Assembly: GCA_963789265.1 (NCBI GenBank)
Contig: CAWBKB010000001.1
Span: forward strand, 1,824,001-1,888,000
Length of the DNA stretch: 64,000 bases
Origin: an uncultured delta proteobacterium
GTDB taxonomy: Bacteria > Desulfobacterota > Desulfomonilia > Desulfomonilales > Desulfomonilaceae
Direction of reading: 5' to 3'
In this document: piece by piece, positions 26,835 through 57,139 of the stretch
How positions within the stretch are numbered: position 1 is the stretch's first letter
Layout: the number at the start of each line of letters is the position of its first letter
Translations under genes and position numbers: made by a program
The notes under the pieces: generated by a model
Databases searched by the model: none
What the model saw: the letters and a program-made list of their open reading frames with translations, nothing else
What the model was told of the DNA's origin: nothing

Positions 26835-27758
26835 TTATTGCGGGGGCACTTCGTGCAGATTGCCGTTAAAATGTTCCTTGATAACCAGGAGGAATGCCTC
26901 TGCAGCCGGCGATAGCCGTTCTTCCCGGTTTACCAGAACGTCGATGGCCCCCATCCTGATATCACCGCCCTCAATCTGAACAACCCTCAGGCATCCTCGA
27001 GCAACCTCTTCGCGGATATTCGGCTCAAACATGAGAGCTACCCCTTTCTTTTGGCGGGCCAGCTCCTTGCCTAGCTCGATATTGTTTATCTCAGCCCCAA
27101 TCAGAGGTTGAAGCCCCCTTTTCTTAAAATGGTGCAGAATGATTGCCCGAGAGGCTGACCCCTCTGACTGAATTATCAAGGGATGGGAAATTAACTCGGC
27201 CCATTTTACGGGCTTGTCCAGGGGCAGGGGGTATTCCGGGCTGGCGACAAGAAAAAGCCTTTCTTCCACGGGAATGCGGTACAGGCGAAGTCGCTCGCTG
27301 TAAGGATACAGCACGCCTATAAGGCAGATGTCCTGTTTGAAATCGAGTAGGTCTTCGACCATTGCTCCGGACGGACCTTCACGTATGGAGAGCCGAATGG
27401 ACGGATGAAGCTCCTTGAATTTGTCTATAAGCGCTGTGAAATACAGCATCAACGGGCTGGAAATCCCTACGGAAAGATTGTTAAACCGGTAGCTTTTGAG
27501 GAAGTTCTCTGTCATTACCGCCTGATTGAGCAGTTCTTCCGCGTAAAGGAACAGCCTTTCACCAGCCCTTGTCAGGGTGACTCGTTTCTTCTTCATGTTT
27601 ACCAGCTTAACTCCAAACTGAACCTCCAAACCATGTACATGCTGAGTTATCGCAGGCTGAGTCATTGAGAGCTTCTCGGCGGCGCGGCTGAAGCTCTGTT
27701 CCTTTGCCAGGAAATAAAATGAGATCACATGGTGAAGGTTAAGCTGGAAACGTCCCAT
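26835..27758 (-). CDS. LysR-family transcriptional regulator
   Basis: SFSRAAEKLSMTQPAITQHVHGLE HTH plus substrate-binding domain; divergent from the carboxylase operon. Confidence 0.95.
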   Translation of the reverse strand: MGRFQLNLHHVISFYFLAKEQSFSRAAEKLSMTQPAITQHVHGLEVQFGVKLVNMKKKRVTLTRAGERLFLYAEELLNQAVMTENFLKSYRFNNLSVGISSPLMLYFTALIDKFKELHPSIRLSIREGPSGAMVEDLLDFKQDICLIGVLYPYSERLRLYRIPVEERLFLVASPEYPLPLDKPVKWAELISHPLIIQSEGSASRAIILHHFKKRGLQPLIGAEINNIELGKELARQKKGVALMFEPNIREEVARGCLRVVQIEGGDIRMGAIDVLVNREERLSPAAEAFLLVIKEHFNGNLHEVPPQ

Positions 27759-27805
27759 GAGTTGATTGTCATATACGTTTGTACACCAGTCAAGTGCTGT
27801 GTTGC

Positions 27806-27835
27806 CTTATGAAATCATTAGTAGATTGCTATTGC
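27806..27835 (+). promoter_or_regulatory. Conserved 30-bp regulator-binding motif, copy 1
   Basis: CTTATGAAATCATTAGTAGATTGCTATTGC; 21/30 positions identical in all three copies. Confidence 0.75.
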
Positions 27836-27939
27836 ATTAATTTTGCCCATCTCTAAGAATCTTTTTTGAAAGCGCAGAAAGTACCAGCGGGAATTTCCAG
27901 GAACCTCACCCGATAATGTGCTCAAACGAGGACAAAAGA

Positions 27940-28302
27940 ATGAAACGAAGAATCACCGAAAATCTTGACGTGGATCTGGAACGAGAAATGTGGACTTGCC
28001 ACTATTGCGGCAAGGATCTGATTTCCGCAAGGCAAAATTTTAAAGAAGGCTGCCTCGTGTATGCACGAGATCCGAGGGATATATATCGCCCGCTAATTGA
28101 AGGTGAATATAGCTTCTCGCCCAATCCTGAATGGGTTCGTATCGTGGAGTTCTATTGCCCCGAGTGCGGGGTCATGATCGAGAATGAAATCCTGCCCCTT
28201 GGCCATCCTTTGACCTACGAGATCGAGCTGGATGTTGATGCGCTGAAAGAAAAATATTTGCAGAAAGAGAGCGTGAGATATGGGGGCACATATCGATATT
28301 GA
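27940..28302 (+). CDS. Acetone/acetophenone carboxylase small Zn-binding subunit (ApcB/AcxC-like)
   Basis: WTCHYCG...IEGEYSF...RIVEFYCPECG...LPLGHP. Confidence 0.9.
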   Translation: MKRRITENLDVDLEREMWTCHYCGKDLISARQNFKEGCLVYARDPRDIYRPLIEGEYSFSPNPEWVRIVEFYCPECGVMIENEILPLGHPLTYEIELDVDALKEKYLQKESVRYGGTYRY

Positions 28303-30427
28303 TACAGGTGGCACGTTCACAGACGTCGTGGTCGCCGTGGGCGGACGTCTAGTCTACGCCAAGGCCCCAACAACTCCTCACAGGCTTGCAGAAGGCTGCA
28401 TGAAAGGCGTGGAAATTGCTGCGCAAGATTTGGGGATGTCTCTCGAGGAATTGCTCCGGAATACCGAGAGTTTCATATTTTCCACCACCTTTGCCACGAA
28501 CGCGCTGATTCAGAAAATTGGTCCGAGGCTGGGGTTAATCACTACTGAAGGCTTTGAAGATCTTCTGGTTATAGGAAAGGGGTCGAGTTGGTCGGACAAA
28601 ATGACCGTCAAGGAGATGCGCAATATCGCTCGAGTCGAGAAACCCAAGCAGCTCATCCCCCGCGATATGACCGTCGGTGTAAAGGAGCGTATCGACACGC
28701 GAGGCGAAATCATCAGGCCCCTCGATGAGGACGACGTCCTAGGGAAAGTCAGGTCTCTCGTGGACAAAGGCGCAGAAGGGTTTGTGGTGAGCCTCCTCTA
28801 CTCCTACCTGAACCCCGAGCACGAGCAGAGGATCAAGAAGCTTATTCAAGATGAGTTTCGAGGACACTGCCTCGCCTCGGCTTTCCCGATAGTCTTATCT
28901 TCCGAAGTTTGTCCAAAGCGAGGCGAATACACCCGGACGACTACCACAATACTGAATGCCTACCTCCAGAAGCCAATTCAGGGGGGCATGATGGACCTTG
29001 CGGGAAATGTCCGGAGCAACGGGTACACAAAGAGCCTCCTCGCCATCCACTGTACCGGGGGAATGGCCCCGATATACCGCTCAACACCTCTCCAGACTTA
29101 CAGCGCCGGCCCCATTGCCGGTCTCATGGCCGGTTCCTACTTCGGGAAAATGCTTGGCTTCGACCACGTTGTGGTTGGCGACATGGGAGGCACAAGCTTC
29201 GACTTGTCGCTCGTGATCCAGGGGAACCCGCGCTTTTACGAGATCAAGCCTGTTGTGGAAGATTGGTGGGTGGACATGACCATGCTGTGGCTCCGCTCCA
29301 TCGGGGCCGGCGGTGGCTCGATTGCTTGGATCAACAAGACATTGAATAACCAGCTTGAAGTAGGACCTCGAAGCGCCGGCGCTTCGCCCGGTCCGGCGGC
29401 CTACGATAGAGGCGGGCACGAACCGACTGTCACGGATGCTGACATCGTACTCGGGTACATTAACCCCGACAATTTCTACGGCGGCAAAATGAAGCTTCGC
29501 AAAGACCTCGCGTGGGATGCCCTGAAAACCAGGATAGCCGAGCCTCTGGGCATTGATCCCGTCGACGCGGCCTGGCGCATCAAAAAAGTGGCCGACGCGA
29601 ACATGGGCGACACGATCGTCAAAGAGACGTATTTGAGGGGCTTCGACCCAAGAGACTTTGTGCTCTTCGCTGCAGGGGCTGCCGGTCCCACTCACTGTTG
29701 TGGTTTCGGTTTCTACGGAAAGCTGAACAGGATCGCCATCTTCCCGTTTTCCCCTGTCTTTTGCGCCCTTGGGTCCGGGGGAATGGACATTATCCACATT
29801 TACGAGCGCTCTCGTAGCCTAACGCTCATGAAGCCTTTGAGTCAGGGGTATCTCGAAGATTATGAAGATTACAATGCGATCGTGCAGGACCTCCAGAAAA
29901 GGGCCCTCACGGACGTAAAGCTCGAGGGGTTTAACGCCGACGACGTAATATTCAGGCTGGAACTTGAAATGAAGTTTGGCGGCCAGGTCCACACGCTCAG
30001 GATCACATCTCCGCATCTCCAACTTCGGAGCGAGGACGACGTGAAGGTGGTGTGCGACCAGTTCATACTGAACTTCAGCGAAGTTTACGACAAGATAGCC
30101 CTTTACCCCGAAGGAGGTATCGAGACCCAACATTTCATTCTCCACACTATACTGCCGCGCCACAAGATCGATCTGCCATCTTACCCCCTTGCGGGGGAAT
30201 TGGTCTCCAAGAGCGCGATCAAGGGGAAAAGGGACGCATTCTGGGAGGAGTACAACGGGTTCCACCAGACGCCGATTATAGACCAGTCGGGACTAAAGCC
30301 CGGCAACATGCTTGAAGGCCCCGCGATTGTTGAATCGAAAAATACCACACTGGTCCTGCCTCCCGGTGCACGAATGAAGGTTGATAAGTATCTGAACTCG
30401 ATCATAGAGAACCTTATGGAGCGATGA
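28280..30427 (+). CDS. Hydantoinase A/oxoprolinase-family ATP-binding subunit (ApcC-like)
   Basis: IDIDTGGTFTD, GDMGGTSFD, GAGGGSIA, GPRSAGASPGP, PTVTDAD. Confidence 0.9.
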   Translation: MGAHIDIDTGGTFTDVVVAVGGRLVYAKAPTTPHRLAEGCMKGVEIAAQDLGMSLEELLRNTESFIFSTTFATNALIQKIGPRLGLITTEGFEDLLVIGKGSSWSDKMTVKEMRNIARVEKPKQLIPRDMTVGVKERIDTRGEIIRPLDEDDVLGKVRSLVDKGAEGFVVSLLYSYLNPEHEQRIKKLIQDEFRGHCLASAFPIVLSSEVCPKRGEYTRTTTTILNAYLQKPIQGGMMDLAGNVRSNGYTKSLLAIHCTGGMAPIYRSTPLQTYSAGPIAGLMAGSYFGKMLGFDHVVVGDMGGTSFDLSLVIQGNPRFYEIKPVVEDWWVDMTMLWLRSIGAGGGSIAWINKTLNNQLEVGPRSAGASPGPAAYDRGGHEPTVTDADIVLGYINPDNFYGGKMKLRKDLAWDALKTRIAEPLGIDPVDAAWRIKKVADANMGDTIVKETYLRGFDPRDFVLFAAGAAGPTHCCGFGFYGKLNRIAIFPFSPVFCALGSGGMDIIHIYERSRSLTLMKPLSQGYLEDYEDYNAIVQDLQKRALTDVKLEGFNADDVIFRLELEMKFGGQVHTLRITSPHLQLRSEDDVKVVCDQFILNFSEVYDKIALYPEGGIETQHFILHTILPRHKIDLPSYPLAGELVSKSAIKGKRDAFWEEYNGFHQTPIIDQSGLKPGNMLEGPAIVESKNTTLVLPPGARMKVDKYLNSIIENLMER

Positions 30428-30499
30428 CGGCATCCGCTCCGGTCTCGACGCCTACCCTGACCTGAAGTGAAACAAAAGAGGAGAGAGAAGGAGATTCCG

Positions 30500-32563
30500 A
30501 TGCGTCCGGATTTCGACAAGCTACTCGCCTGGATGAAGGTTGAATCGGCCACTGAGGAAGAGATCGAAGGGATGAAACTTCTGAAGCCGGGAGATCTTGA
30601 GATCTATACGGAAAAGCTGAACCAGTTCCTCTCGGAAGGCTACATCGTCTTCGAAAGGACAGGCATCAGCATGATGATACGTTCAGGGGATTGTGTGGTG
30701 GGGCTGTACACCGTGGAAGGCGACCTGGTCAACTGCTCCACGGGCTTGCTGATGCATGCAATATGGCCTGAACTCCTGTTGAAATGGTTGATCGAGAATT
30801 ATGTGATGAACCCGGAATCGAACGTAAAAGTCAAGGCGGGAGACATTTTCTACTCGAATGAGCCCCTTTACGGAGGCGTGCACTCTCCCGACCAGACCGC
30901 AATCATGCCGATCTTCAATGATGGAGAGCTAATCGGCTGGGCACTGGCCGCAGCACACACACCGGAGACGGGAGCCGTTACGCCCGGAGGGATGCCGCTT
31001 AGGGCGCTCAACCGATTTTACGAAGGCATGCGGCTCCCGCCGGTACGAATCGGTGAGAACTACGAGTTGCGGGATGACATGATGGAGATGATCTCCGATT
31101 ATATGATGAGGACCTCACGGGAGGCGATGAACGATGTAAAGGCAAGGGCCACAGCCTGTCGCCGGCTTGAAATGAGGATGGGCGAGTTCGCTCGTGAGAA
31201 AGGCAATCGGTTTGTCAAGGGACTAATGCGAAAGATGATCGCGGTTGGCGAAGAAGCCGCTCAAAAGCGGATCGCGAGCATTAATGACGGAACCTACAGG
31301 GCCATTACTTTCATCGATCACGTGGGCACAGAGGAGGCACTCTTGAGGTGCAGTGTCACGGCCAGGAAAAAGGGAGACAGCATAGAGTTCGACTTCACGG
31401 GAACGTCTCCCGAACATGATGCGGGCTCCTACCTTGCATTCCCACACATTGCGGTGGCCCATACAGCCATCTATGTCTTGCAGTATATTTTCTACGATCT
31501 TCCCATCGGAACCGCCGCCTATTCTCAGTTCAGGTGGTATTTCCCCAAGGGCTGCATCTTCAACGCCGACGAGATGGCCCCCACTTCCAGGGCACCCTCG
31601 CTCTGTGCCATCGTGTTCAATGCCTTCTACGATCTATTTGCAAAGATGTTGTTCGACACGGATCTGCGCCCGCAGATTGCAGCTGCCACTGGAGTCGGCT
31701 CATCTATGAACATTGCTGGTGTGACTCAAAAGGGTGTGCGTGTTTCGGACATGCTGAACTACCCATTTAACACCGAAGGGCAAGGTGCGCGGTACGAACT
31801 GGACGGCTGCGACAGCAATTCCTTTTTGTTTACACCGGTATCACGCGGGTACGATGCCGAGGAGACGGAAGAAGAAATGCCGCTATTACACCTTTACCAG
31901 AGGCACCGGACCGACAGTTGTGGATTCGGGAAGTACCGCGGAGGATCGGGGGTCGAGTCGGCGTATGTAATCCACCAGGTTCCTGAGGTCGCCATGTTCA
32001 GTGGAGGAAGGGAGACACATATTCGTACGACCAGGGGGCTCTTTGGCGGTTATCCGGGGAGTACCAAACCGGGAATTGAGATCCACGACACAGATGTTTG
32101 GAAAAAACTGGCCAATGGGGAAAAAGATATCCCGACGTCAACGGCAGAACTTATTACCGACAGGAAAATTGTCGGCCAGTACAAAGTCACCCATAACACT
32201 CGCGAATACCACCTTGTAAAGAATGGCGATGTGATCGTCCACCTTAATTCCGGAGGGGCCGGCTATGGAGACGTGCTGTTCCGCGAGCCCGAGAAGGTGA
32301 TGGAAGATCTACGAGATCAGATCATATCGCACTGGACCGCTCAGAATGTCTACAAAGTGGCATACGATCGAGAGACTCTCGTACCCGACGTCGAGGCAAC
32401 CGAAAGAGAGCGCCGCAAGGAGCGCGAGACTAGGATAGAACGCGGAAAACCCTATCGAGAATTTGAGCGGGAATGGCTGGTGAAACGGGCCCCCGAACAG
32501 GCGCTGAAACACTGGGGCACATGGCCGGACGGCAAGCAAACGAAACGTATAGTGAGATTTTGA
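30500..32563 (+). CDS. Hydantoinase B/oxoprolinase-family catalytic subunit (ApcD-like)
   Basis: NEPLYGGVHSPD...AHTPETG metal-site motifs, GKYRGGSG, GGAGYGD; AAGGAG Shine-Dalgarno before ATG 30500. Confidence 0.9.
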   Translation: MRPDFDKLLAWMKVESATEEEIEGMKLLKPGDLEIYTEKLNQFLSEGYIVFERTGISMMIRSGDCVVGLYTVEGDLVNCSTGLLMHAIWPELLLKWLIENYVMNPESNVKVKAGDIFYSNEPLYGGVHSPDQTAIMPIFNDGELIGWALAAAHTPETGAVTPGGMPLRALNRFYEGMRLPPVRIGENYELRDDMMEMISDYMMRTSREAMNDVKARATACRRLEMRMGEFAREKGNRFVKGLMRKMIAVGEEAAQKRIASINDGTYRAITFIDHVGTEEALLRCSVTARKKGDSIEFDFTGTSPEHDAGSYLAFPHIAVAHTAIYVLQYIFYDLPIGTAAYSQFRWYFPKGCIFNADEMAPTSRAPSLCAIVFNAFYDLFAKMLFDTDLRPQIAAATGVGSSMNIAGVTQKGVRVSDMLNYPFNTEGQGARYELDGCDSNSFLFTPVSRGYDAEETEEEMPLLHLYQRHRTDSCGFGKYRGGSGVESAYVIHQVPEVAMFSGGRETHIRTTRGLFGGYPGSTKPGIEIHDTDVWKKLANGEKDIPTSTAELITDRKIVGQYKVTHNTREYHLVKNGDVIVHLNSGGAGYGDVLFREPEKVMEDLRDQIISHWTAQNVYKVAYDRETLVPDVEATERERRKERETRIERGKPYREFEREWLVKRAPEQALKHWGTWPDGKQTKRIVRF

Positions 32564-32573
32564 GGGAAACACC

Positions 32574-33383
32574 ATGAAATTGAACGCGGCAATACGAATA
32601 AACGTTTCACAAACGGACGCGACCTTTGAAACTGATGAAGGCCGAGCGATACAGGTGGAGTGCGTCAATGGCAAGGATCCTTCTTTCGACTGCTTTGTTC
32701 AAGCTATAGAACAGGGGGCTAACATCCTGGAGCAGACGCCTGAAGAGATGGTCAGGCAACTTGCGGTCGTGCGTGTGTCCGTGCCCGCTGTAGCAGACAC
32801 GATCGTCGCCAAGAGGCTCGGGACTCGAATTGGGCTGATAGTTACCCGGGCGGAAGAGACCACCGCTCAATGGAAAACAGCCACGGCAGATCCAGAGTTT
32901 AATTTTGTCATTTCCCCGGAAATGATAGTCACTGTAAGGGAGGAAGTAAGCGATGCGGGGCAAAGGATCATCGCACCAGATCGCGATGAGATCAGGGACA
33001 AGGTGAGGTACCTGCTCGAACGCGGTGTTGGCGCCCTTGTCGTTAGTTTCCGAAATGGCCGAATCAATCCTGCGAATGAGAAAACAGTTAAAGAGTTCAT
33101 AGAATCGGATTATCCGAGACATTACCTCGGTGCGGTGCCGGTGTTCATAGCGAGTGATTTCTCGGCAGAGCAGGATGACTTCCGCAGGGCCAAGGGCTGC
33201 CTGCTCAATGTCTACTGCTGGGCGGGCGTGGACGATGCAATTGGCAGGATGCAAACCTACCTCAGAGAGCGAAAATTCGTGGGATCTTTCTTTATCTCGG
33301 ACGCCACAGGGGATTCCTTTTCAAGAGCGGGCCTGATCCCTCTCAGCACCTCCGGTGCGCTGGCCTCGCTGCATCTGTCATAG
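32574..33383 (+). CDS. Hydantoinase N-terminal-domain-only protein (truncated ApcA-like)
   Basis: RIGLIVT, VVSFRNGRINPANE, DYPRHYLGAVPV; degenerate phosphate-1 motif; 269 aa. Confidence 0.75.
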   Translation: MKLNAAIRINVSQTDATFETDEGRAIQVECVNGKDPSFDCFVQAIEQGANILEQTPEEMVRQLAVVRVSVPAVADTIVAKRLGTRIGLIVTRAEETTAQWKTATADPEFNFVISPEMIVTVREEVSDAGQRIIAPDRDEIRDKVRYLLERGVGALVVSFRNGRINPANEKTVKEFIESDYPRHYLGAVPVFIASDFSAEQDDFRRAKGCLLNVYCWAGVDDAIGRMQTYLRERKFVGSFFISDATGDSFSRAGLIPLSTSGALASLHLS

Positions 33384-33417
33384 GCACGGCAGCCGTCGCG
33401 AAGGAGTTCAAGCCGGT

Positions 33418-34680
33418 ATGGCGAAGACAATCGTAATAATTGGTTCACTGGATACCAAGGGAGAGCAAATTCGGTTTCTGAAAGATCGAGTTCAAGCCAG
33501 AGGCCATCGGGCGCTCATCATGGACGTGAGCATGGGGTCAAGCTCTGGATTCGAAGGAGATATTACCCCTCGAGAGATCGCGAGTCTTGTGGGCAAAGAC
33601 ATTGCCGAGATCGTGGGATCCGATGACAGACTCTTCAAGACAGATGTCATGACCGCTGGCGCTCGGCAGAAAATGCTCGACCTCCTTGCAAAAGGCGAGG
33701 TAGATGGAGCTGTGGCGCTGGGAGGGGCCACGATCACGCTCCTTGGGTCCCGCGCGATGCAAGTGCTTCCCTTCGGAATCCCCAAGGTGATTGCGACGTC
33801 CGCGGCCATGCCCGTGTATGTCAGTCAGTGGTTCGAGGCTATGGATATCCTCGTCATGCAGATAATCATGGAATTCACCGGGATGAATGAATTGCTCACA
33901 CACGCACTCGGGCAAGTGGCGGGGGTTATTTCGGGCATCGTAGAAGAAAGCCGTCATCCTTCATCGCTTCGCCTGCCTTACCCCTCAATCGCCATAACCG
34001 AAATAGGGTTTTCTCCTCAATGCACACGGCAAGTCGAGAGTCTGCTCGAGGCCAACCAGTGGAACGTGTTCACCTTTCATGCCCAGGGTATCAGCGACAG
34101 GGCAATGGATCGTCTTATTTCCCAAGGTTTTTTTGACGGCGTCATTGACGTCGTGCCCGCCGGCGTCATCGAGGAAATGTTCGGCGGCAATCGTGCTGCG
34201 GGAAAAGAAAGGCTTGATGCAGTCTGCGAAAGAGGTATTCCGATGGTGCTCGCCCCCTGCTGCATTAATCTAACCGGGTGCGGAGCCACTCGAACCAATC
34301 GCGAGAAGTATGCTTCCAGACCCCATATAAAAATAGATGAATTAAGGGCCATGACACGTTTTGACGATGGAGAACTCACCGCGGCTGCGCGGGCTTACGC
34401 TGATAAGCTGAACAGAGCAAAGGGACCGGTGCGCTTCGTGGTGCCCTTGAAGGGTTGGTCTGCCATCGATAGGGAAGGTACCGTTCTATACAATCCGGAA
34501 AAGGACCGGATATTCATTGACAAGCTTAGGGAAAAGCTCAATCCGAGCATCCGGATCGTGGAAGTTCCAAACAACCTGGAAGACATGGACTTTGCCAGGG
34601 CGCTTGTTGATAACTTTACCGAGATTTTCAACGGACAAACCACCGATGACCGTGGCCGGAAGGCCGCAGGGGTAGAATAG
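33418..34680 (+). CDS. Tm-1-like ATP-binding domain protein (UPF0261)
   Basis: IIGSLDTKGE, LPFGIPKVI, FHAQG, PLKGWSAID. Confidence 0.9.
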   Translation: MAKTIVIIGSLDTKGEQIRFLKDRVQARGHRALIMDVSMGSSSGFEGDITPREIASLVGKDIAEIVGSDDRLFKTDVMTAGARQKMLDLLAKGEVDGAVALGGATITLLGSRAMQVLPFGIPKVIATSAAMPVYVSQWFEAMDILVMQIIMEFTGMNELLTHALGQVAGVISGIVEESRHPSSLRLPYPSIAITEIGFSPQCTRQVESLLEANQWNVFTFHAQGISDRAMDRLISQGFFDGVIDVVPAGVIEEMFGGNRAAGKERLDAVCERGIPMVLAPCCINLTGCGATRTNREKYASRPHIKIDELRAMTRFDDGELTAAARAYADKLNRAKGPVRFVVPLKGWSAIDREGTVLYNPEKDRIFIDKLREKLNPSIRIVEVPNNLEDMDFARALVDNFTEIFNGQTTDDRGRKAAGVE

Positions 34681-34737
34681 GATCAAAGAAAAAGGTGACT
34701 GTTCACAGGGAAAGCGGCCTGTCCGCCTTTGAACTCG

Positions 34738-34806
34738 GCCGCCAGAGACGCCGGCCCCACCTGCAACCGTAGGAACGCCCTCCGTGCCGGTTCCCGGATG
34801 CCGGTA
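34738..34806. repeat. GTAG/GTGG-type REP doublet
   Basis: GCCAGAGACGCCGGCCCCAC...GTAGGAACGCCCTCCGTGCCGGTTCC...ATGCCGGT; related to the flanks of the 50642-52529 MITE. Confidence 0.55.
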
Positions 34807-34855
34807 AACCGTCACGAAAGAAATTCAGCCGGGGTCAAGGCAAGGGAGATGATGG

Positions 34856-36295: not shown

Positions 36296-37464
36296 AAGAC
36301 AAAGTTGCCGTCATCGGTATGGGCTGCACGCAGTTCGGTGAGTTGTGGGACAAAGGTCCGCACGACCTTATCGTCGATGCTTGTTCCGAGGCGCTCGAGG
36401 ATGCGGGGATCGAATCCACCGACATACAGCATGCGTGGTTTGCCAGTCTCGTGTCCGGCGCGTCAGGGGCTCGCCTGTCAAGCGCATTCAAGCTCCCGTA
36501 TATACCTATTACCCGGGTCGAGAACTTCTGTTCAGGCGGCAGCCATGCTTTCGGAAACGCGTGCTACGCTGTTGCCGCAGGTGTATGCGATATCGCTCTT
36601 GCCTGTGGGGTGGAGAAATTAAAGGACCGCCCCGGCGGTTTCGCTTATCCGAACCCCGAGCCGTTCGACTCAAGCAAAATCATATCCGAGTTGCTCCCGG
36701 CAAACATGTTCGCTCATATTGCCGTCAAGTACTTCGAAGAGAAGAGTTGGACCTGTGAAGAAGGCAGGCGGATTCTGGCCAAGATCGCGGTAAAGAACCA
36801 TCATAACGGGACGCTCAATCCTAAAGCCCATCTTCATCGCGAGATCACGGAAGACGACGTGCTGAGAGCTCCTATGGTGGTCTACCCCTTTGGACTTTAT
36901 GACTGCTGTGGTGTCAGTGACGGAGCGGCCGCGGCAATCATCTGTAGGGCCGACATGGCCAAAAGCTTTCGCGACGACTACGTACTGGTCAAGGCTGTAT
37001 CCTTTGCTTCCGGATCCGGTGAATCGCGCTTCTGCGACGACTATGACTATCTCGACATCCCTGAGACCACAATAGCTGCCAAAAGGGCGTATGAGCAAGC
37101 CGGAATAAAGAACCCGCGCAAGGAGATTTCCCTTGCCGAGATTCATGATTGCTTCACCATCCACGAGTTAGTCCTGTACGAGCAGCTTGGTTTCAGCCCG
37201 CGATTGAAGGCTTCGCAAGACGTTGAAGCAGAGGCCTTTACGTTGAATGGAGAACTGCCGGTCAATCCCGACGGCGGTCTGAAATGCTTCGGCCACCCGC
37301 TTTCCGCGACCGGCTTGCGTATGATTTACGAGGTGTACAAGCAGCTTCAAGGAAAGGCGGGCCAGCGACAGATCAAGAATGCATCAATAGGACTTACTCA
37401 GAATGTCGGAGGAATGGTGGGGTTCTTCAACGCGGCTGTACTGCTCTTCGGCACGAGGTCATAA
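36283..37464 (+). CDS. Thiolase (SCP2/archaeal-type acetyl-CoA acetyltransferase)
   Basis: RVENFCSGG, KNHHNG, SDGAAA, AEIHDCF, GHPLSATG. Confidence 0.92.
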   Translation: MESIKDKVAVIGMGCTQFGELWDKGPHDLIVDACSEALEDAGIESTDIQHAWFASLVSGASGARLSSAFKLPYIPITRVENFCSGGSHAFGNACYAVAAGVCDIALACGVEKLKDRPGGFAYPNPEPFDSSKIISELLPANMFAHIAVKYFEEKSWTCEEGRRILAKIAVKNHHNGTLNPKAHLHREITEDDVLRAPMVVYPFGLYDCCGVSDGAAAAIICRADMAKSFRDDYVLVKAVSFASGSGESRFCDDYDYLDIPETTIAAKRAYEQAGIKNPRKEISLAEIHDCFTIHELVLYEQLGFSPRLKASQDVEAEAFTLNGELPVNPDGGLKCFGHPLSATGLRMIYEVYKQLQGKAGQRQIKNASIGLTQNVGGMVGFFNAAVLLFGTRS

Positions 37465-37482
37465 ACTGTCAGGGGGTTTGTA

Positions 37483-42614: not shown

Positions 42615-42672
42615 TAGACGTGATTCGCTTTCACGGCGGTCGGTCGGAGTAATTGTGTTCGGAGGTAGCGAT

Positions 42673-50398: not shown

Positions 50399-50703
50399 GC
50401 TTGAACTGAGGCGACTTTTCTGCGGAAGACCCATTTTGATACGAATTTGTTTTCAAAATCTCCCCGGTCCCCTTTACAAAAGGGGGGAACTCCTTCAGAC
50501 GCGAGGTTAAGTCAACGTCTATGCGGCAAAACAGGGCTTATCATTTTGCGGTTAGGTCTGGAACTGCTCTGGGGCTGTGCTCACGACGTGAGCGTTCAGC
50601 GGGAAAAAGGTTTACCCGGTTCCAGGTTTAGCAGGCAGAGAGAAAGTGTCTCGAAACTATTTTGATGCTCGGAATTGTGGCACGATGGCAGCCCGGCACT
50701 AAA

Positions 50704-52379
50704 GAGAGTGTCTCAAAACGGTTGTAGTGGCACGATGACGACTCTCGGGGTGGTAGGGTGCGGTTAATCTCGCACCTTGGCCTCCCTTGTCTCCGACGAG
50801 CCGGGGCCGGCTATGAGTATGCCTCAGGCAGCCATGAGTCACTCTCCGTCCTGATGTCTTAGGCCGCGGTTAGCACCAGACGCCCCGTCAGCCAATGGCT
50901 GTAGAGCTTCTTGAGATTCAAGGTGGCGCACATCAAAGACCATTGAGCCCTCGCATTGGATAATCCGGACACGGTCCACCGTCTAAAGTCCAAGTGGCTC
51001 TTTATCCATGCAAAGACCGGCTCAATGATCACCTTGCGGGCTCGGAGTAGCGTCTTGCTTTCCGGGACCTCCCGTTTCTTGCGGTGGCGCTCAACTGCGT
51101 CACGATAGATGTTAATGTCTATGAGACGGCCATTCTTGCTCTTGCTGCACTTCCACCGTTCAGGACACGTCAAGTAGTCCCGGCATCGATACCGCCGGAT
51201 CTCGTTTCCGTTTTTTCCTGTGACTTTCTTCTGAAGAAAGTTCAGCGATGCGCCTTGCGGACAAATACAGACGTCTCGCTCTTGGTCGTAGACGAACTGG
51301 GAAGCGTGATAAGGGTCCCATTGAGCGCCTTTTTCCGCAGCGGACTCTCCCGACGACTTGGCGACCAAGACCTCGTACTCCTTCTCTTCGGCCAACGCGA
51401 TTTGAGCCGATGCGAAGTATCCTGCGTCCGCCACGGTTTCCTCTGCGGTTGCGCCCAAATTTTCCTGAACTCGATCCAGCATGGGAACAAGCTGCCCATT
51501 GTCATTGCCTTCGTCGACCACTTCCTCAGCCACAATCATGCCGCTTTGTTGGTCTGCCACCGCTTGAGCATTGTAAGAGGGCTCAGTAGACCGCCGGTTC
51601 TTCATGTACCGGGCATCCGGCTCGCAGGGATGGACGACCTTCTTGTCAGTCTTATCCAATTCCTGCAAGGCCTTCTGTATCCGCTCCTTGCGTTTCAACT
51701 CGTCCTGCAGGGCTTCGGGAAGACGCCATTCGCCACCCTCCTCTTGCTCGCACCTCTCTGTCTCCGTCATGACGTCGGCAACGCACTTGTCCAAATTCTC
51801 AAGCATCCGCTCCAACTGATCTTGGTTCTTGAACTTCTCCCGAGATGATCCGACAGGGATCTTGGTTCCATCCAATGCATGAACCGCCATACCTATCAAC
51901 TCGGCTTTGACTGCCACTTGAACCGATTGTTTGAATATTCCCTTGAAAACCTTCTTGTTGTCCCTCCAGAATCGCCACAGGGTATTATGATCCGCTGCAT
52001 TCATACCCGTCAGCCAAATCAATCCCATGTTCTCCATGCATGCCTTCTCAAGCTTGCGCGATGACCTGATTCTGCTGAAATAGCCGTAGAGCCATGCCTT
52101 CAACAAAAGATCGGTACTATAGGGAGGACGGCCCGTTTCGCCATTCGGAACTCGAAAACCCAGCACCTCCAAATCCAAGGAATCCACAAAGTCTCCTATG
52201 AAGCGCGCTGGATGATCAGGCCCTATCCAGTCATCTATAGCGGGCGGAAGCAGAAACACCTGCTTGTAGTCGGCTCTGATTTGCGGCATAATCCTTTCCC
52301 TCTCCGATTCTCTTTTCACATCTCATTAGTAGAATCGGTTGAGAATCGCGAGCCCAAAATCGACTTTTGAGACAGTTTC
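50704..52379 (-). mobile_element. IS1182-family insertion sequence (1676 bp)
   Basis: IRs GAGAGTGTCTCAAAA / TTTTGAGACAGTTTC; TAAA duplication at 50700-50703 and 52380-52383. Confidence 0.9.
50859..52289 (-). CDS. IS1182-family DDE transposase
   Basis: HPARFI, GRPPY, IRSSRKLE, LDGTKI, YNAQ, ADAGY, IEPVFAWIK. Confidence 0.93.
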   Translation of the reverse strand: MPQIRADYKQVFLLPPAIDDWIGPDHPARFIGDFVDSLDLEVLGFRVPNGETGRPPYSTDLLLKAWLYGYFSRIRSSRKLEKACMENMGLIWLTGMNAADHNTLWRFWRDNKKVFKGIFKQSVQVAVKAELIGMAVHALDGTKIPVGSSREKFKNQDQLERMLENLDKCVADVMTETERCEQEEGGEWRLPEALQDELKRKERIQKALQELDKTDKKVVHPCEPDARYMKNRRSTEPSYNAQAVADQQSGMIVAEEVVDEGNDNGQLVPMLDRVQENLGATAEETVADAGYFASAQIALAEEKEYEVLVAKSSGESAAEKGAQWDPYHASQFVYDQERDVCICPQGASLNFLQKKVTGKNGNEIRRYRCRDYLTCPERWKCSKSKNGRLIDINIYRDAVERHRKKREVPESKTLLRARKVIIEPVFAWIKSHLDFRRWTVSGLSNARAQWSLMCATLNLKKLYSHWLTGRLVLTAA

Positions 52380-52607
52380 TAAAGTACCGGTCTACTCTCA
52401 ATCGCCCCAATGGGGCTCAAATACTGGCGTCCCGTAGGGACCTGAGACAGTAGCCCGGTAATTCATTACCGGGGAAAAGGGTCATTCGTGGTACGATTTC
52501 GTCCAGTTCACGGGTTTTGAGACCGTTTCGAGACACCGGCCCTACTACGATCTCGGTAGGACCGGACTCTCGGGATGCCGGTCACAAAGTCCCCATTGAA
52601 CGCTTAC

Positions 52608-52744: not shown

Positions 52745-53338
52745 GTGAAAAACGACCCTCCTGTTCAGGTGGTCTTTGTGTGCGTCAGCAACCGCGGTCG
52801 GAGCGTTTTCGCTGAGTTCGCTTTTAGAAAGATGATCGGCGAACGAGATGGAAGGCTTCTTGAGCTGGTCTATGTGTCGTCCGCCGGCTTTATCCCTCGG
52901 GCCCTAAGAGGGCATGTGGCAAAACTGGGTATAAGCTTTCCCGAGCCCTTTTACAGCCGTCCCATGCCTGAAACGACACGTACTTTTTTGTCCGAGAGAG
53001 GCATAGTAGTCTCACCGGATTGGAGGTCGAAAGCGCTCACTTCAGTAATGGTGCAAGAGGCCAATCTCATTGTCACTGCCCTACCCCAGCAAAAAGAAGA
53101 CCTCCTTAATCTTTATCCGAATGCGAAGGGCGAGATTCTCACAATTAGAGAAATATCTCAATGGACCGGGTATCTTAGATTCGAGGATTTATCGGGACTC
53201 CCGACAGATGGTACGTACTGGAACTATGTCGAGGAAGATGCTGATTATGTTTCGGAAATACTCGTCGAGATGGAACAGAGCTTGACGCGGGCATTCCCGC
53301 ATATCCTCGGACGGCTCGGGCTTGGTGGCGATTCGTGA
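52745..53338 (+). CDS. Low-molecular-weight phosphatase-fold protein (LMW-PTP/ArsC-like)
   Basis: VVFVCVSNRGRSVFAE P-loop (CX5R), VSSAG. Confidence 0.8.
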   Translation: MKNDPPVQVVFVCVSNRGRSVFAEFAFRKMIGERDGRLLELVYVSSAGFIPRALRGHVAKLGISFPEPFYSRPMPETTRTFLSERGIVVSPDWRSKALTSVMVQEANLIVTALPQQKEDLLNLYPNAKGEILTIREISQWTGYLRFEDLSGLPTDGTYWNYVEEDADYVSEILVEMEQSLTRAFPHILGRLGLGGDS

Positions 53339-53440: not shown

Positions 53441-55072
53441 ATGGCGGACAAAAGTTATGATGCAGTGGTCGTAGGCGGAGGTCATCATGGCTTGATAACG
53501 GCTTGTTACCTGCAAATGGCGGGGATAAAAACTGCAATATTCGAATTGAAGCCGCATTTGGGAGGATCGGTGACCAGCGCGGAAGGGCCGGCACCGGGAT
53601 TCACTTTTAACGTCAGTTCCAGTTGGACACGCTTTTACGGCCACCCGGCCTACAGTGATTTCAATCTTCGAGAGAAAGGCCTGGAATACATTTTCCCCGA
53701 GGGGAATGAGGCCATGATTTTCGACAACGATACCTGCCTGATCGGTTACTCCGCCTTGAAAGTCGTTGACCCTCTGACCGGAAAGACCGAGATATCTCAC
53801 GAGAATTTGCAGAAGACTCTCAATGAAATCAGCCGGTTTTCCCAGAAAGATGCTGAGACCGCGGTAGAGCTTTTTCGAAGGTACATGAAGAAATGGAAAT
53901 CCGCGATGGGAGATTATCGGCTCCGGCCCCCGGTTCCATGGGGAAAAAAGAATGAATTGGAAAAGCTGTGTGACGACCCCGAGGACGGCATTGACCCCAT
54001 ATATCAGTTCATGACTACTCAGCAACTGGCCTATGATGTTTTCGAAAGCGAAGAACTGAGGACACTGTTTATCAGAGCAGCCATGACCTCTTTTGGCGGC
54101 GCCCCTCATGATGTTATCGGCCTACATGGCTTCATCCACGCCATCGGGTTGGTCCTTTCGTGGGAGCCTGCGGCCATTGCCAAAGGAGGCAGCCAGAGCA
54201 TATCGAATGCCCTGCAAGAGGCATTCACGCAAATGGGCGGCGAGTTCTTTTGCCGCAGCGACGTGGTCAAACTCGTAATCGAGAATAACAAGGCAAAAGG
54301 GATTCGACTGAAAGATGGAACGGAGATAAAAGCCGAGAAGCTCGTGGTCAGCGACCTGAGCGCTCTTCAATCCGTTCACCTTATTGGTGAAGAGCATCTT
54401 GATTCCAAGATTGTCAACCGTGTGAAAAACATCAGATATGATCGGCACACTATTGTTTGGGCTATGGTCGCCATGCACGAGTTGCCGCAGTACAAGGCGG
54501 CTTCATTTAACTCGGACTGCGGATCGCAACCCAGGATGTACATAGGACCGCGAAACGCAGATTACATGGCGAACCAATACCTTTCCGAGATATTCGTTAA
54601 AGGTATCGCAGACCGGCTCTTCATGTTTGTTGGTCCTGACAGCATCTGGGATAGCTCCAGGGCCCCTGAAGGCAAGCATATCATTGGGATTGAGGAATTC
54701 TCCGCGCCTGCAAGATTCTTTTCCCCAACCAAGTGGCAAGATCTGAGAAATCAGTTTGAAGCCGCCATCATCAGAGAGTGGCAGAAATACGCTCCGAACA
54801 TGACCAGGGAGAATGTTATCGCCAGTCAGATTGTTACCCCCTACGATATTCAATTGACCCACCCGAACATGCATGAAGGGTCCATAGCCTGCGGAGACAT
54901 GATCGTCTCTCAGATGGATCGATTTCGTCCAACTCCGGAACTATCAGGTTACAGGACGCCCATAAAGAACTTCTATCTGTGTTCCTCCGCCTGCCACAAT
55001 GGAATCGGTACGGGGCGAGGTTCTTCTTACAACTGTTATCAGGTGATCCGAGAGGACTTTTCTTTGAAGTGA
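53441..55072 (+). CDS. FAD-dependent oxidoreductase, phytoene-dehydrogenase-related family
   Basis: YDAVVVGGGHHGL Rossmann motif, GGSQSISNAL, YRTPIKNFYLCSS. Confidence 0.88.
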   Translation: MADKSYDAVVVGGGHHGLITACYLQMAGIKTAIFELKPHLGGSVTSAEGPAPGFTFNVSSSWTRFYGHPAYSDFNLREKGLEYIFPEGNEAMIFDNDTCLIGYSALKVVDPLTGKTEISHENLQKTLNEISRFSQKDAETAVELFRRYMKKWKSAMGDYRLRPPVPWGKKNELEKLCDDPEDGIDPIYQFMTTQQLAYDVFESEELRTLFIRAAMTSFGGAPHDVIGLHGFIHAIGLVLSWEPAAIAKGGSQSISNALQEAFTQMGGEFFCRSDVVKLVIENNKAKGIRLKDGTEIKAEKLVVSDLSALQSVHLIGEEHLDSKIVNRVKNIRYDRHTIVWAMVAMHELPQYKAASFNSDCGSQPRMYIGPRNADYMANQYLSEIFVKGIADRLFMFVGPDSIWDSSRAPEGKHIIGIEEFSAPARFFSPTKWQDLRNQFEAAIIREWQKYAPNMTRENVIASQIVTPYDIQLTHPNMHEGSIACGDMIVSQMDRFRPTPELSGYRTPIKNFYLCSSACHNGIGTGRGSSYNCYQVIREDFSLK

Positions 55073-55305
55073 GACTCGATAGCGATATGTCCACCGCCGC
55101 GAGGTCGTATAAATCAGGTACAGATTGTTATGGTTTACACCGAGAAAATCAACCGCAATCCATTCTTGCCGATTAAATAGGCGTGCCTCGCTCGCTCCCT
55201 CTGGAAGTTGCATAAGCTGTACGGGACGCTGCCGGGTTCGCGAACAAGCTGGTATGACAATACATTTCATGGCCTTGCTCCCGGCTAATGCGAGGAAACA
55301 AGTGG

Positions 55306-56049
55306 ATGAGACTCAAAGATAAGGTGGCCATTGTCACGGGGGCTGCCAAGGGACTTGGAAGAACCTTCGCTATTGCTCTCGCGAGAGAGGGCGCAAAGAT
55401 CATGGCTGTTGATATCGCAGACCCTGCGGAAGTGACAACAGATATCGAATCAGGCGGAGGTGTGGCCAAAGGTTTGCGGGCCGACGTTTCCATCGAAAAG
55501 GAGACCCTCAAGATCGCACGGGAAACAGTAAATGCCTTTGGAAGGATTGACATACTAATCAACAATGCCGCTATCGTTCAAGGGTTGGTTCGAAAACCTT
55601 TCTATGAAATCGAACCGAACGAGTGGGACCGGCTGATGCTGGTGAATCTCAAAGGCCCCTGGCTATGTACAAGGGCCGTATTCCCCTACATGAAGCAGCA
55701 GGGAAAAGGAAAGATAATCAACCTTTCCTCGGAGACTTTCTTCACCGGGTCTCACGGTTTGGTCCACTATGTGGCCTCAAAGGGCGGAATAGTCGGGTTA
55801 ACGAGAGCCCTTGCCATTGAATTGGGTCCCCACAATATCAACATCAACGCTGTTGCACCCGGATTTACAGATACTGAATCTAGCCGATCCATCGCAGATA
55901 TCTCCAAATACGATGTCACTCGGACACCTTTGGGTCGATTGCAGCAGCCCGACGATCTCGTTGGGGCAGTTATCTTTCTTGCCTCTGATGAAAGCGATTT
56001 CATCACCGGCCAAACTCTGTTGGTGGACGGAGGGAGGGTCATGCATTAG
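55306..56049 (+). CDS. Short-chain dehydrogenase/reductase
   Basis: TGAAKGLG, NNAA, YVASK. Confidence 0.95.
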   Translation: MRLKDKVAIVTGAAKGLGRTFAIALAREGAKIMAVDIADPAEVTTDIESGGGVAKGLRADVSIEKETLKIARETVNAFGRIDILINNAAIVQGLVRKPFYEIEPNEWDRLMLVNLKGPWLCTRAVFPYMKQQGKGKIINLSSETFFTGSHGLVHYVASKGGIVGLTRALAIELGPHNININAVAPGFTDTESSRSIADISKYDVTRTPLGRLQQPDDLVGAVIFLASDESDFITGQTLLVDGGRVMH

Positions 56050-56107
56050 TCCTCGCTGTGTTTGCAGGGATTGCGAAAAGTAATGTCCGTTTGAGGCGGA
56101 GGGGCAG

Positions 56108-57139
56108 ATGAGTTCAGAAAAACTATTCTTTTGGTTTGAGGAGCTGCGAGACACACACAACGACCTCGTGGGGAAGAAGTGCGCAAATCTCGGTCAAATG
56201 ATTCACTTGGGATTGGAAGTCCCGCCGGGCTTCGCGATATCCATCGACGCTTATCTGAAATTCATTCGTGAAACGGGCGCTGCGGCGGAAATGTCTCGAT
56301 ATGTGGAGGCCCTGGGCGAATTGAAAGGGCAAGGTATCGGCGTTTTCGAGGAAATCAGTCAAACGATCCAAGGCATCATTGAGAAAACAGAGATGCCCGA
56401 GGGGGTGCAAGGGCCGATAATAGATTATTACGACAGGCTTTGCGACAAAGTGGGGATTCCCGATATGCCCGTGTCGGTCAGATCGGCAGGCACGGAAAGC
56501 AGACCGGGCCTCTTCGAAACCTATCTCAATGTCAAGGGCATTGACGACGTGTTGGATAAGGTGAAGAAAGTTTGGGCCAGTGCGTACACGACCAGAGCGG
56601 TGGCATTCAGGATAAACAAAGGCTTGCCGGTTGTGGGAGACGAACTGGGGGTTGCGGTTCCAAAGATGGTCAATTCGCGCTCGTCCGGAATTTGTTTTAC
56701 GGCCAACCCTGTCACAGGCGATCACTCGAAGATCATTCTCGAAGCCAACTGGGGACTGGGAGAAGGCGTGGTCAGTGGAGCCGAAAGCGTTGATGGGTTC
56801 GTCGTTGACAAGGAATCGCTGCAAATTACGAACGTTCAGATAGGCAGAAAAGCTACGTGCGTAGTGAATCGGGAGAAAGGCGCTGCATGGGCTGATGTTC
56901 CTAAAAAAATGCAGAGTATCTCCTGCATAAGCGATGAAGAAGTCATCGAAATAGCCAGGGTGGCGAGGTCCGTCGAGACAAAATTAGGGCGTCCGCAGGA
57001 CATGGAATGGGCCATCGACAACGATCTCCCCTTCCCCAAGAGCATCTTTTGGCTTCAGACGCGGCCTGCAAAAGTTAAGGCCGCAGCTCCCGTATCAACC
57101 ACAGACCAGATCATCAACATGATGATCAGAAGACTGTGA
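56108..57139 (+). CDS. PEP/pyruvate-binding (ATP-grasp) subunit (phenylphosphate synthase B / HpeI / AcvB-like)
   Basis: VGKKCANLG, VPPGF, VSVRSA, TYLNV, WGLGEGVVSG, QDMEWA, LQTRP; no His domain. Confidence 0.88.
   Translation: MSSEKLFFWFEELRDTHNDLVGKKCANLGQMIHLGLEVPPGFAISIDAYLKFIRETGAAAEMSRYVEALGELKGQGIGVFEEISQTIQGIIEKTEMPEGVQGPIIDYYDRLCDKVGIPDMPVSVRSAGTESRPGLFETYLNVKGIDDVLDKVKKVWASAYTTRAVAFRINKGLPVVGDELGVAVPKMVNSRSSGICFTANPVTGDHSKIILEANWGLGEGVVSGAESVDGFVVDKESLQITNVQIGRKATCVVNREKGAAWADVPKKMQSISCISDEEVIEIARVARSVETKLGRPQDMEWAIDNDLPFPKSIFWLQTRPAKVKAAAPVSTTDQIINMMIRRL

Follow-up and report, generated by a model that had tools for sequence, protein, structure and literature searches.

The stretch of DNA analysed here, which we call the window (64,000 nucleotides, C1:1824001-1888000), comes from the genome of an uncultured member of the Desulfomonilaceae (labelled G000, 6.06 Mb, 95.6% complete; its other contigs cited below are C3, C4, C5 and C6). 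At 26835-57139 it carries an island of genes in which subunits resembling acetophenone carboxylase (Apc) are accompanied by a candidate aryl kinase and a candidate aryl-phosphate phosphatase. The gene map was drawn from a listing of open reading frames (ORFs) and from Pfam and NCBIfam scans of the window ORFs; features are on the plus strand unless stated. The conserved core (26835-39075) begins with a LysR-type regulator on the minus strand (26835-27758; HTH_1 and LysR_substrate), divergent from an operon that encodes a small ApcB/AcxG-like zinc-ribbon subunit (27916-28302; PF08882), an ApcC-like large subunit of the hydantoinase-A type (the ATP-binding alpha, 28280-30427) and an ApcD-like large subunit of the hydantoinase-B type (30467-32563), both large subunits being recognised by Pfam, NCBIfam and structure matches. 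These are followed by a 269-amino-acid (aa) protein with only a Hydant_A_N domain (32574-33383; PF05378, 44.5 bits) and by a UPF0261 protein, a candidate MarK-like aryl (phenol) kinase (33418-34680; PF06792 and PF23189), whose ORF is open from 33355 and whose likely start at 33418 was set by comparison with orthologues. The core ends with an HMG-CoA-synthase-like (HMGCS-like) domain fused to DUF35, i.e. to a zinc ribbon and an OB fold (34856-36295; structure matches), a thiolase of the SCP-x/archaeal type (36241-37464; NF004810, 505.6 bits, cut-off 403) and an AMP-forming acyl-CoA ligase with Pfam AMP-binding domains, a candidate aroylacetate-CoA ligase (37483-39075). An earlier note on this DNA had named a number of genes of the island, and Pfam and NCBIfam confirm each of them at its coordinates; as a list it was incomplete, since the UPF0261 gene, the gene for the 269-aa protein, two acyl-CoA dehydrogenases, an isochorismatase, a CrtI/CrtO-like FAD oxidoreductase (FADox) and an IS1182 transposase were omitted. 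Its remark that the window holds no UbiD-type or biotin carboxylase is borne out: neither was found among the window ORFs of at least 100-120 aa, UbiD matches in the genome (two genes) occur on contig C3 only, and the three genomic Biotin_carb_C matches (C4:234680, C1:1447168 and C5:581435) all lie outside the window.

The identity of the carboxylase was judged by comparing scores against solved structures and NCBIfam models. The best solved match of the ApcC-like protein is the gamma subunit of Apc (716.5 bits to 5l9w_B), followed by acetone carboxylase beta (345.6), the lactamase-type protein 6yra_A (308.9) and N-methylhydantoinase (294.2); the ApcD-like protein reaches 531.7 bits with 5l9w_A, 167 with acetone carboxylase alpha, 96.4 with 6yra_B and 91.2 with the next match. 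The ApcB-like protein scores 108.3 bits with PF08882 (Acetone_carb_G, cut-off 21), and its gene is the sole match to this family in the genome. Hydantoinase_A and Hydantoinase_B domains are, on the other hand, common to caprolactamase, oxoprolinase and N-methylhydantoinase, and the island includes a gene of the amidase-like isochorismatase family, two points that speak for a ring-opening hydrolase driven by ATP, such as a lactamase or hydantoinase; ring opening of a lactam or heterocycle had already been put forward as an alternative. We regard it as highly improbable. The scores to Apc are about twice (ApcC-like) and more than five times (ApcD-like) those to lactamases and hydantoinases, and the downstream ligase and thiolase suit a beta-keto acid product. 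The Acetone_carb_G subunit is specific to Apc and Acx according to section 2.5 of PMC13677872, and the ApcB/C/D-like set would be of the carboxylase type because this subunit is present here, while the two other HydA/HydB pairs of the genome (C1:50.7-54.5k and C5:193.6-197.3k) are without one.

By its sequence, however, the island enzyme is not a canonical Apc. The three subunits all fall under the equivalog cut-offs (ApcB-like, 165 bits with NF042974 against 250; ApcC-like, 757.8 with NF042975 against 1500; ApcD-like, 579.9 with NF042976 against 1500), and there is no full-length ApcA. Compared with ApcABCDE of Aromatoleum aromaticum (PDB 5L9W), which supplies the best solved matches of the ApcB/C/D-like subunits, and whose ATP-dependent, biotin-free chemistry as described in the introduction of PMC13677872 would apply here too, the island has a CoA ligase downstream, as the A. 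aromaticum enzyme is followed by a benzoylacetate-CoA ligase, but the island has the 269-aa HydA-N paralogue in place of alpha' (ApcA) and no recognisable epsilon. It also differs in that the operon contains the gene for the MarK-like kinase and, in orthologous operons, the gene for the phosphatase. The 269-aa protein matches positions 12-267 of the 733 in ApcC, i.e. the first third of a HydA subunit, and shares 24% identity with the ApcC-like protein at its N-terminus. It is kept at 56-63% aa identity in three relatives' genomes (G052, G057 and G058) and in one metagenome locus (L086), and at 81% over the part present in another (L085); an AlphaFold model built from a 4-row alignment was unusable (mean pLDDT 49.3). 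In size and position the protein would suit the detachable epsilon subunit of about 30 kDa; epsilon subunits are described as too divergent for recognition in section 2.6 of PMC13677872. No epsilon-like gene was found after apcD in the canonical loci of relatives, where a sigma-54 activator and a URO-D-like gene stand instead.

Orthologues of the ApcD-like protein at 88-90% identity occur in three other genomes from two other genera of the family, and a search of genome contigs for further close relatives returned only these three. A sample of 401 genomes of the phylum added a single one, a 75% partial copy without context on a 2.3-kb contig of G334 (85% complete), a genome whose best UPF0261 match is 30% identical. 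Only generic names were found for ApcD-like homologues among the 120 matches listed, which include metagenome clusters at 64-75% identity (P0003-P0016). The canonical apcA-apcB-apcC-apcD sets of relatives from the same order are 35-49% identical to the window's proteins and are accompanied at two of the loci by CoA ligase and thiolase genes. In four Desulfomonilaceae genomes (G032, G047, G058:C3 and G065; loci L044-L051) the canonical set occurs as two tandem copies 9-12 kb apart.

The kinase that is best tied to the carboxylase is the predicted aryl kinase encoded within the operon, the UPF0261/MarK-like gene. MarK, which Hall et al. 2025 (PMC12624787) present as the sole characterised UPF0261 enzyme, is a kinase that converts ATP to ADP and acts on acetovanillone, 4-hydroxyacetophenone and related phenols; its operon also encodes AcvCDE, a biotin carboxylase, and AcvF, a phosphatase. 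The window protein contains both the N- and the C-terminal UPF0261 domain and scores 125.6 bits with the MarK structure (9mpy_A). The ATP-site residues D14-T15-K16 of MarK are kept as D33-T34-K35, and the phenol-site residues G195 and H219 as G218 and H242. The suggestion that a kinase protects the phenol survives in so far as a candidate kinase gene does stand in the operon, but the enzyme in question would be the UPF0261/MarK-like protein rather than the split pair that had been named.

The core is conserved in other genomes. From LysR through the CoA ligase it is collinear with G058, which belongs to another genus, at 76-80% nucleotide identity (LysR 76% and CoA ligase 82% at the aa level), and the Apc-type operon is also found in G057 and in G052, where the contig ends inside the ligase. 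The UPF0261 gene stands between the carboxylase and scaffold genes in the window, in G052 and G058 and in the metagenome loci L085 and L086, and in both G058 and G057 the phosphatase gene directly follows the CoA ligase. For a wider view, five UPF0261 proteins of this subfamily were aligned and used to scan metagenome contigs; the best 80 of 307 stretches encoding a relative (57-88% identity) were then searched with the island proteins and with those of contig C13 of G058, and the neighbours were tallied. A PycB-like carboxyltransferase occurs near UPF0261 in 21 of the 80 loci and Apc-type genes in two (L085 and L086), while both types together occur in none; at least one PpsAB-like kinase half is near UPF0261 in 35 loci, and both halves in 18. 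In the 15 loci with at least 4 kb on each side the Apc-type genes are absent, while a carboxyltransferase is found in 8, a kinase half in 10, a ligase in 8, a thiolase in 8, a phosphatase in 4 and FADox in 5.

The operon of the biotin type is best seen in L094, where LysR (minus strand) is followed by a fusion of carboxyltransferase (CT) and biotin carboxyl carrier protein (BCCP) with HMGL-like, PYC_OADA and biotinyl domains, a biotin carboxylase (BC), UPF0261, PPDK_N, PEP-utilizers, CoA ligase, HMGCS-like/DUF35, thiolase, DUF2284, a major facilitator superfamily (MFS) transporter and isochorismatase; in L087, L097, L099 and L101 the phosphatase gene stands after the thiolase, at the DUF2284 position of L094. 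Orthologues of nine of the window's proteins are encoded in operons of this type (L094, L087, L099): LysR (50-60% aa identity in 7 metagenome loci, with two further weak matches at 27-28%), UPF0261 (63-67%), the PEP-utilizers subunit (69-73%), the CoA ligase (about 70%, range 64-72%, in the form found in L094), the scaffold (44-46%), the thiolase (55-59%), the phosphatase (48-53%), MFS (63-80%; L087, L093, L094/95, L099 and L101) and the isochorismatase (61-64%; L087 and L094/95), which is the conserved end gene there. What sets the two apart is the CT-BCCP fusion, the biotin carboxylase and an adjacent cognate PPDK_N on the one side, and the ApcBCD-like and 269-aa genes and another gene order on the other. 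Since orthologues are shared at 44-80%, the island has the same pathway frame with the Apc-type genes and the 269-aa gene in the slot of the biotin carboxylase, which supports the view that the hybrid would have arisen as a carboxylase swap within an orthologous operon frame. In answer to the co-occurrence search proposed in the earlier note, Apc-type genes occupy the slot of the PycB-type biotin carboxylase in otherwise orthologous operons.

Carboxyltransferases are linked to this kinase family in the relatives as well. On G058:C13 (L083:5408-11165) the UPF0261 gene, a PycB-like carboxyltransferase, the phosphatase and FADox form an operon, and on G057:C227 (L084:10394-13181) UPF0261 is followed by a carboxyltransferase, with the contig ending soon after. 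The UPF0261 proteins of these two loci are the closest paralogues of the window's (52-54% identical), and the FADox of G058:C13 is 83.6% identical to the window's. Pfam detects no biotinyl domain in either carboxyltransferase, and no biotin carboxylase gene was found among the neighbouring ORFs scanned; the best match to the G058:C13 carboxyltransferase in the genome of the window is 28% identical (C1:1086384). In a quick maximum-likelihood tree of UPF0261 (76 rows: 69 of the 80 metagenome loci and 7 genome rows, including two UbiD-linked paralogues as outgroup; 11 loci were left out, their matches being shorter than 380 aa or interrupted by a stop in frame) the four rows with a link to Apc-type genes group together (SH-aLRT 95; 99 when L088 is included), and their clade lies within a set of rows linked to biotin carboxylase. 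This is suggestive only of a single replacement of the biotin enzyme by the Apc type, the tree being a quick one with long outgroup branches.

On this basis we lean, with modest confidence, towards the view that the island encodes a catabolic pathway for para-hydroxylated aryl methyl ketones of the 4-hydroxyacetophenone/acetovanillone type, following the plan of the Xcc, Hpe and Acv pathways with the carboxylase exchanged. Firstly, the MarK-like UPF0261 kinase would transfer a phosphate to the phenolic hydroxyl, a step in which a PpsAB/HpeHI-like dikinase may share. Secondly, the acetyl methyl group would be carboxylated by the biotin-independent, ATP-dependent Apc-type enzyme, made up of the ApcB/C/D-like subunits and probably the 269-aa protein. 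The phosphate would then be removed by the LMW-PTP-like (low-molecular-weight protein tyrosine phosphatase-like) enzyme, the aroylacetate activated by the CoA ligase, and the product split into aroyl-CoA and acetyl-CoA by the thiolase on a dead HMGCS-like/DUF35 scaffold. The genes, their homology, their conserved synteny and the exchange of carboxylase types are matters of observation. The enzymatic steps, the substrate and the placing of carboxylation before dephosphorylation are drawn by analogy with Hpe and Acv, and the action of an Apc-type enzyme on a phosphorylated ketone is our proposal only. We are more reserved about the particular claim that a reduced-set Apc-type carboxylase (alpha, beta, gamma and a mini alpha') replaced the biotin carboxylase and acts on an aryl-phosphate-protected ketone, to which we would give slightly less than an even chance. 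The earlier note had inferred a hybrid of this kind, and the part that stands is an Apc-type enzyme in the biotin slot with kinase and phosphatase genes in the conserved operon; the role assigned to the split kinase needs correction.

It is instructive to compare the island with the known pathways for 4-hydroxyacetophenone and acetovanillone, namely Hpe of Rhodococcus rhodochrous GD02, Acv of Sphingobium SYK-6, MarK-AcvCDEF of Novosphingobium aromaticivorans and Xcc of A. aromaticum EbN1. Their common logic of kinase, carboxylase, phosphatase, CoA activation and C2 cleavage, as described in PMC9618137, bioRxiv 10.1101/2022.04.28.489975 and PMC12624787, would be that of the island, which has both a UPF0261 kinase (as MarK) and split PpsAB-like halves (as HpeHI and AcvAB), although the island halves are non-cognate. 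Differences are found at four points. The carboxylase is of the Apc type in the island and a BC/BCCP/PycB-like CT enzyme in Hpe, Acv and Xcc; the phosphatase is LMW-PTP-like as opposed to the HAD/NagD-like HpeD and AcvF; C2 cleavage in Hpe is due to the hydrolase HpeF, whereas the island has a thiolase with an HMGCS-like/DUF35 scaffold; and the island's host belongs to a lineage of strict anaerobes, unlike those of the four pathways. According to PMC9618137, HpeCBA accepts the ketone for carboxylation only in its phosphorylated form, and the phosphatase HpeD acts preferentially on the product of that carboxylation. AcvE and XccA are PycB-like (bioRxiv 10.1101/2022.04.28.489975, section 6), and according to the introduction of PMC13677872 the four organisms studied all use biotin enzymes to carboxylate 4-hydroxyacetophenone.

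The candidate aryl-phosphate phosphatase (52745-53338; PF01451, 26.8 bits, cut-off 23.2) carries a CX5RS P-loop near its N-terminus (C13-VSNRG-R19-S20). The Pfam match covers the N-terminal part of the protein only, and the motif FEDLSGLP aligns with the DP loop VEDPYGMP of 4egs, so that the assignment of the Asp comes from one weak alignment. LMW-PTPs hydrolyse aryl phosphates. No HAD-family (NagD-like) phosphatase gene was found in the island by the Pfam scan. As a CX5R phosphatase the gene had been called correctly, by its motif and by PF01451, but it does not adjoin the operon here, 13.6 kb and an insertion sequence (IS) having come between them. The HMGCS-like/DUF35 fusion has its best solved matches with PhlA (131 bits), archaeal HMGCS (6esq_I, 109 bits) and archaeal DUF35 (6esq_E, 55 bits), and the catalytic Glu, Cys and His of 6esq_I align with Thr, Leu and Ala; because these residues are lost, as in PhlA, the protein would be a non-catalytic scaffold for the thiolase. 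The thiolase itself scores 184 bits with 6esq_A, and the nucleophilic Cys and the GH His are kept in the alignment. The island thus shares the three-part architecture of the archaeal thiolase/HMGCS/DUF35 complex (6ESQ) and of PhlACB (5M3K), but in contrast to 6ESQ its HMGCS-like part has lost the catalytic residues and is fused to DUF35, so that of the "thiolase with its DUF35 partner" described earlier the thiolase stands and a separate DUF35 protein does not. Ligase and thiolase genes do follow in the conserved operon, in line with the proposal that they release an aroyl-CoA, and the release itself would hold by analogy.

Two further proteins of the island look like parts of a small-molecule dikinase. 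One is a PpsA/HpeH-like PEP-utilizers subunit ('B-type', 562 aa, 43619-45307; PF00391 at residues 484-555), of which residues 228-560 match rifampin phosphotransferase 5fbs at 544-866, the substrate-binding and phospho-His swivel region, and which has orthologues at 67-78% aa identity in metagenome operons. The other is a PpsB/HpeI-like PPDK_N ATP-grasp subunit ('A-type', 343 aa, 56108-57139; PF01326, 267 bits) that scores 206.7 bits with the ATP-grasp domains of the PEP synthase 9dae. They had been taken for a two-subunit PEP-synthase-like kinase, a claim that needs correction: the genes lie 10.8 kb apart with an IS1182 element between them, the halves are non-cognate, and each is orthologous to one half of a different pair in G058. 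G058 has PpsA-like, SDR2, FAD_binding_3, Zn-ADH, PpsB-like, alpha and beta subunits of electron-transfer flavoprotein (ETF), FADox and a response regulator downstream, and farther on a second, adjacent PpsB-like/PpsA-like pair. In an all-against-all comparison the 562-aa protein is 82.5% identical to PEPmobB of G058 vs 34.8% to PEPmobA, and the 343-aa protein 74.9% to PPDKN_A vs 46.5% to PPDKN_B. A whole-genome tblastn search found no A-type PpsA-like and no B-type PpsB-like gene; what it did find is a third pair on C6 (41% and 51% identical), the Pps genes that belong to the C3 UbiD locus (26% and 35%) and copies still more remote. Because of these identities and because cognates are missing genome-wide, the window holds one half each of two ancestral pairs.

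Split PEP-synthase-like subunits and phosphorylation before carboxylation are also features of the PpsABC and UbiD phenylphosphate carboxylase systems of Thauera and Desulfatiglans, and with two UbiD genes on C3 the island kinases might serve an unlinked UbiD-type carboxylase. We find this barely credible, as a PpsA-like (610 aa) and a PpsB-like (359 aa) protein are encoded at the C3 locus itself, together with UbiX, a CBS protein and two UPF0261 paralogues, and the kinase proteins of that locus are only 26-37% identical to those of the island. The window, moreover, is without UbiD, UbiX or a PpsC-like gene, the true Pps/UbiD locus of the genome being on C3, and the island halves are non-adjacent and fall into different groups of orthologues. 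That locus (C3:972001-992000, L015) is a canonical activation locus of the phenol type with UbiX, PpsA-like, PpsB-like, UbiD, CoA ligase, UPF0261, CBS and HD proteins, and with LysR, UPF0261, UbiD and UbiA on the other strand; a UPF0261 gene is thus found beside or near each of the two UbiD genes.

Several observations weigh against the proposed phospho-assisted pathway. No full-length second HydA paralogue (alpha', ApcA) was found at the locus, where there is only the 269-aa Hydant_A_N protein, and it is a full-length alpha' that defines the known Apc with its heterooctameric core. The third phenol-site residue of MarK, H304, aligns with Ile in the window protein. In G057 the Apc-type operon is without UPF0261, the nearest copy (52% identical) being on another contig, so UPF0261 is not an obligate neighbour of Apc-type genes. 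Around the canonical apc loci of relatives no kinase (UPF0261 or split), phosphatase or scaffold gene was found within 14-40 kb, and Apc-type enzymes do not, as a rule, need them. Neither type of carboxylase is seen near UPF0261 in the DNA at hand for 57 of the 80 metagenome loci, most contigs being too short to show one. Public sequencing runs were searched for the operon, and no RNA run was found; it was present in 8 DNA runs from 2 studies, only one of which had at least half of the sequence words. An Apc-type enzyme (2 ATP) together with a kinase and a ligase would be costly for a strict anaerobe. Finally, compared with G058 the phosphatase is separated from the ligase by 13.6 kb, from MFS through the IS, and neither split-kinase half has its cognate partner in this genome, so that the pathway may have decayed in part.

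Some of these points would be explained if the island served an ordinary ketone pathway, in which the substrate of the Apc-type enzyme is a ketone without phosphate (acetophenone-like or aliphatic), ligase and thiolase follow, the UPF0261 and LMW-PTP-like proteins serve another compound or regulation, and the split kinases belong to separate modules with FADox, SDR and Mop. The relatives' canonical apc loci without kinase or phosphatase genes and the G057 operon without UPF0261 fit such a pathway, and split kinases are met again beside FADox, SDR and Mop-like genes, both in the C6 module and in metagenome loci where no carboxylase is visible. Against it stands the position of UPF0261 between carboxylase and scaffold genes in the five loci named above, and the same set of LysR, UPF0261, ligase, thiolase and phosphatase is found beside a PycB-type carboxylase, which in the one tested enzyme, described in PMC9618137, needs a phosphorylated substrate. 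We judge this explanation unlikely, although it deserves serious consideration.

The other explanation that draws on these points is that of a partly decayed mosaic, in which IS1182 rearrangement orphaned the split-kinase halves and detached the phosphatase, leaving the pathway incomplete or only the core (carboxylase, UPF0261, ligase and thiolase) at work. The IS1182-family element (50692-52419, minus strand, delimited by its repeat boundaries; transposase at 50859-52319, minus strand, NF033551, 363.7 bits) lies between the Mop and phosphatase genes, and the genome contains 15 full-length copies (at least 99.5% aa identity) and 3 interrupted ones. In addition to the 13.6 kb and the IS, the window differs from G058 in lacking PEPmobA, FAD_binding_3, ETFab and PPDKN_B, and cognate kinase halves are missing from a genome that is 95.6% complete. 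Nevertheless, the ORFs of the island are all intact, the inserted MFS, PEPmob B and isochorismatase genes are orthologues of members of the biotin-type operon, and PpsA-like and PpsB-like halves of different lineages might still cooperate, so that decay seems to us distinctly improbable. We note separately that activity of the IS1182 element is recent and that the element may account for the island's mosaic character.

If the pathway works as proposed, the island would encode the first case of an Apc-type enzyme that acts together with a MarK-type kinase and with an LMW-PTP serving as a metabolic aryl-phosphate phosphatase, and an undescribed anaerobic route for lignin-derived acetophenones, of which Desulfomonilaceae would be anaerobic consumers. 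Biotin-dependent and Apc/Acx-type carboxylases, which are mechanistically unrelated, would then be interchangeable in the phospho-assisted catabolism of phenolic ketones, the substrate range of Apc would widen past the known non-phenolic ketones, and the widespread UPF0261 and LMW-PTP families would each gain a second metabolic context. The natural swap also poses the question of whether the Apc-type enzyme needs the phosphate, as HpeCBA does. A literature search, outside which subscription-only papers fell, found no paper linking an Apc-type carboxylase with MarK/UPF0261, with HpeHI-type kinases or with phenolic ketones, in agreement with the earlier claim that no described pathway has this combination.

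The remaining genes of the island lie downstream of the core. The ligase is followed by the MFS transporter (39677-41095; MFS_1), a first acyl-CoA dehydrogenase (41331-42614; Pfam), the short-chain dehydrogenase/reductase SDR1 (42544-43497; Pfam, true start probably later), the PpsA-like gene and the isochorismatase-family hydrolase (45359-45970; PF00857), then by a second acyl-CoA dehydrogenase (46220-47629; Pfam and NCBIfam) and a Mop-type aldehyde oxidoreductase (47684-50398; NF045668, 1678 bits, cut-off 1100). FADox (53441-55072; Pfam and NCBIfam) and SDR2 (55288-56049; Pfam) stand between the phosphatase and the PpsB-like gene. The second acyl-CoA dehydrogenase and Mop, for which no counterpart was found in the G058 island, are accessory and outside the conserved core; a second copy of Mop, 92.7% identical, lies at C4:145812-148523, and many other paralogues of the xanthine dehydrogenase family occur in the genome. 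Orthologues of the first acyl-CoA dehydrogenase and SDR1 (76% and 74%) are found in L110 on one contig, 6.5 kb downstream of a B-type PEP-utilizers gene. SDR2, which is 76% identical at the aa level in G058, occurs at 15 of the 80 UPF0261 metagenome loci, and FADox at 14. A role of the SDRs and the CrtI-like FADox in forming the ketone, from an alkylphenol or an alcohol, is speculation on our part.

Related modules are found elsewhere. On C6 (245700-256800, L014) there are two FADox genes, the second apparently frameshifted, a truncated SDR (161 aa), PpsA-like (41%) and PpsB-like (51%) genes, a 244-aa protein without family and a Mop-like oxidoreductase (38%); upstream of these lie an MFS gene and LysR in divergent orientation. 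The metagenome locus L133 (10001-20182) contains UPF0261, SDR2 (76%), FADox (76%) and two HGD-D subunits resembling 2-hydroxyacyl-CoA dehydratase/benzoyl-CoA reductase, followed by a BcrAD/BadFG ATPase and an A-type PpsB-like/PpsA-like pair; here the aryl-kinase module is combined with an ATP-driven radical enzyme of the kind that strict anaerobes have. Outside the island the window encodes regulators, a Liv-type ABC transporter, more CoA ligases and a second transposase (DDE_3, at the window end, 61320-62405). The island is bordered by a DUF362 gene and by three more genes for AMP-binding CoA ligases (20250-25689 and 62694-63989). The Liv-type transporter (14355-19080) is intact and adjoins two consecutive ORFs (245 and 272 aa, 12758-14213), each of which covers half of a Peripla_BP_6 domain, so that they probably represent a frameshifted solute-binding gene.

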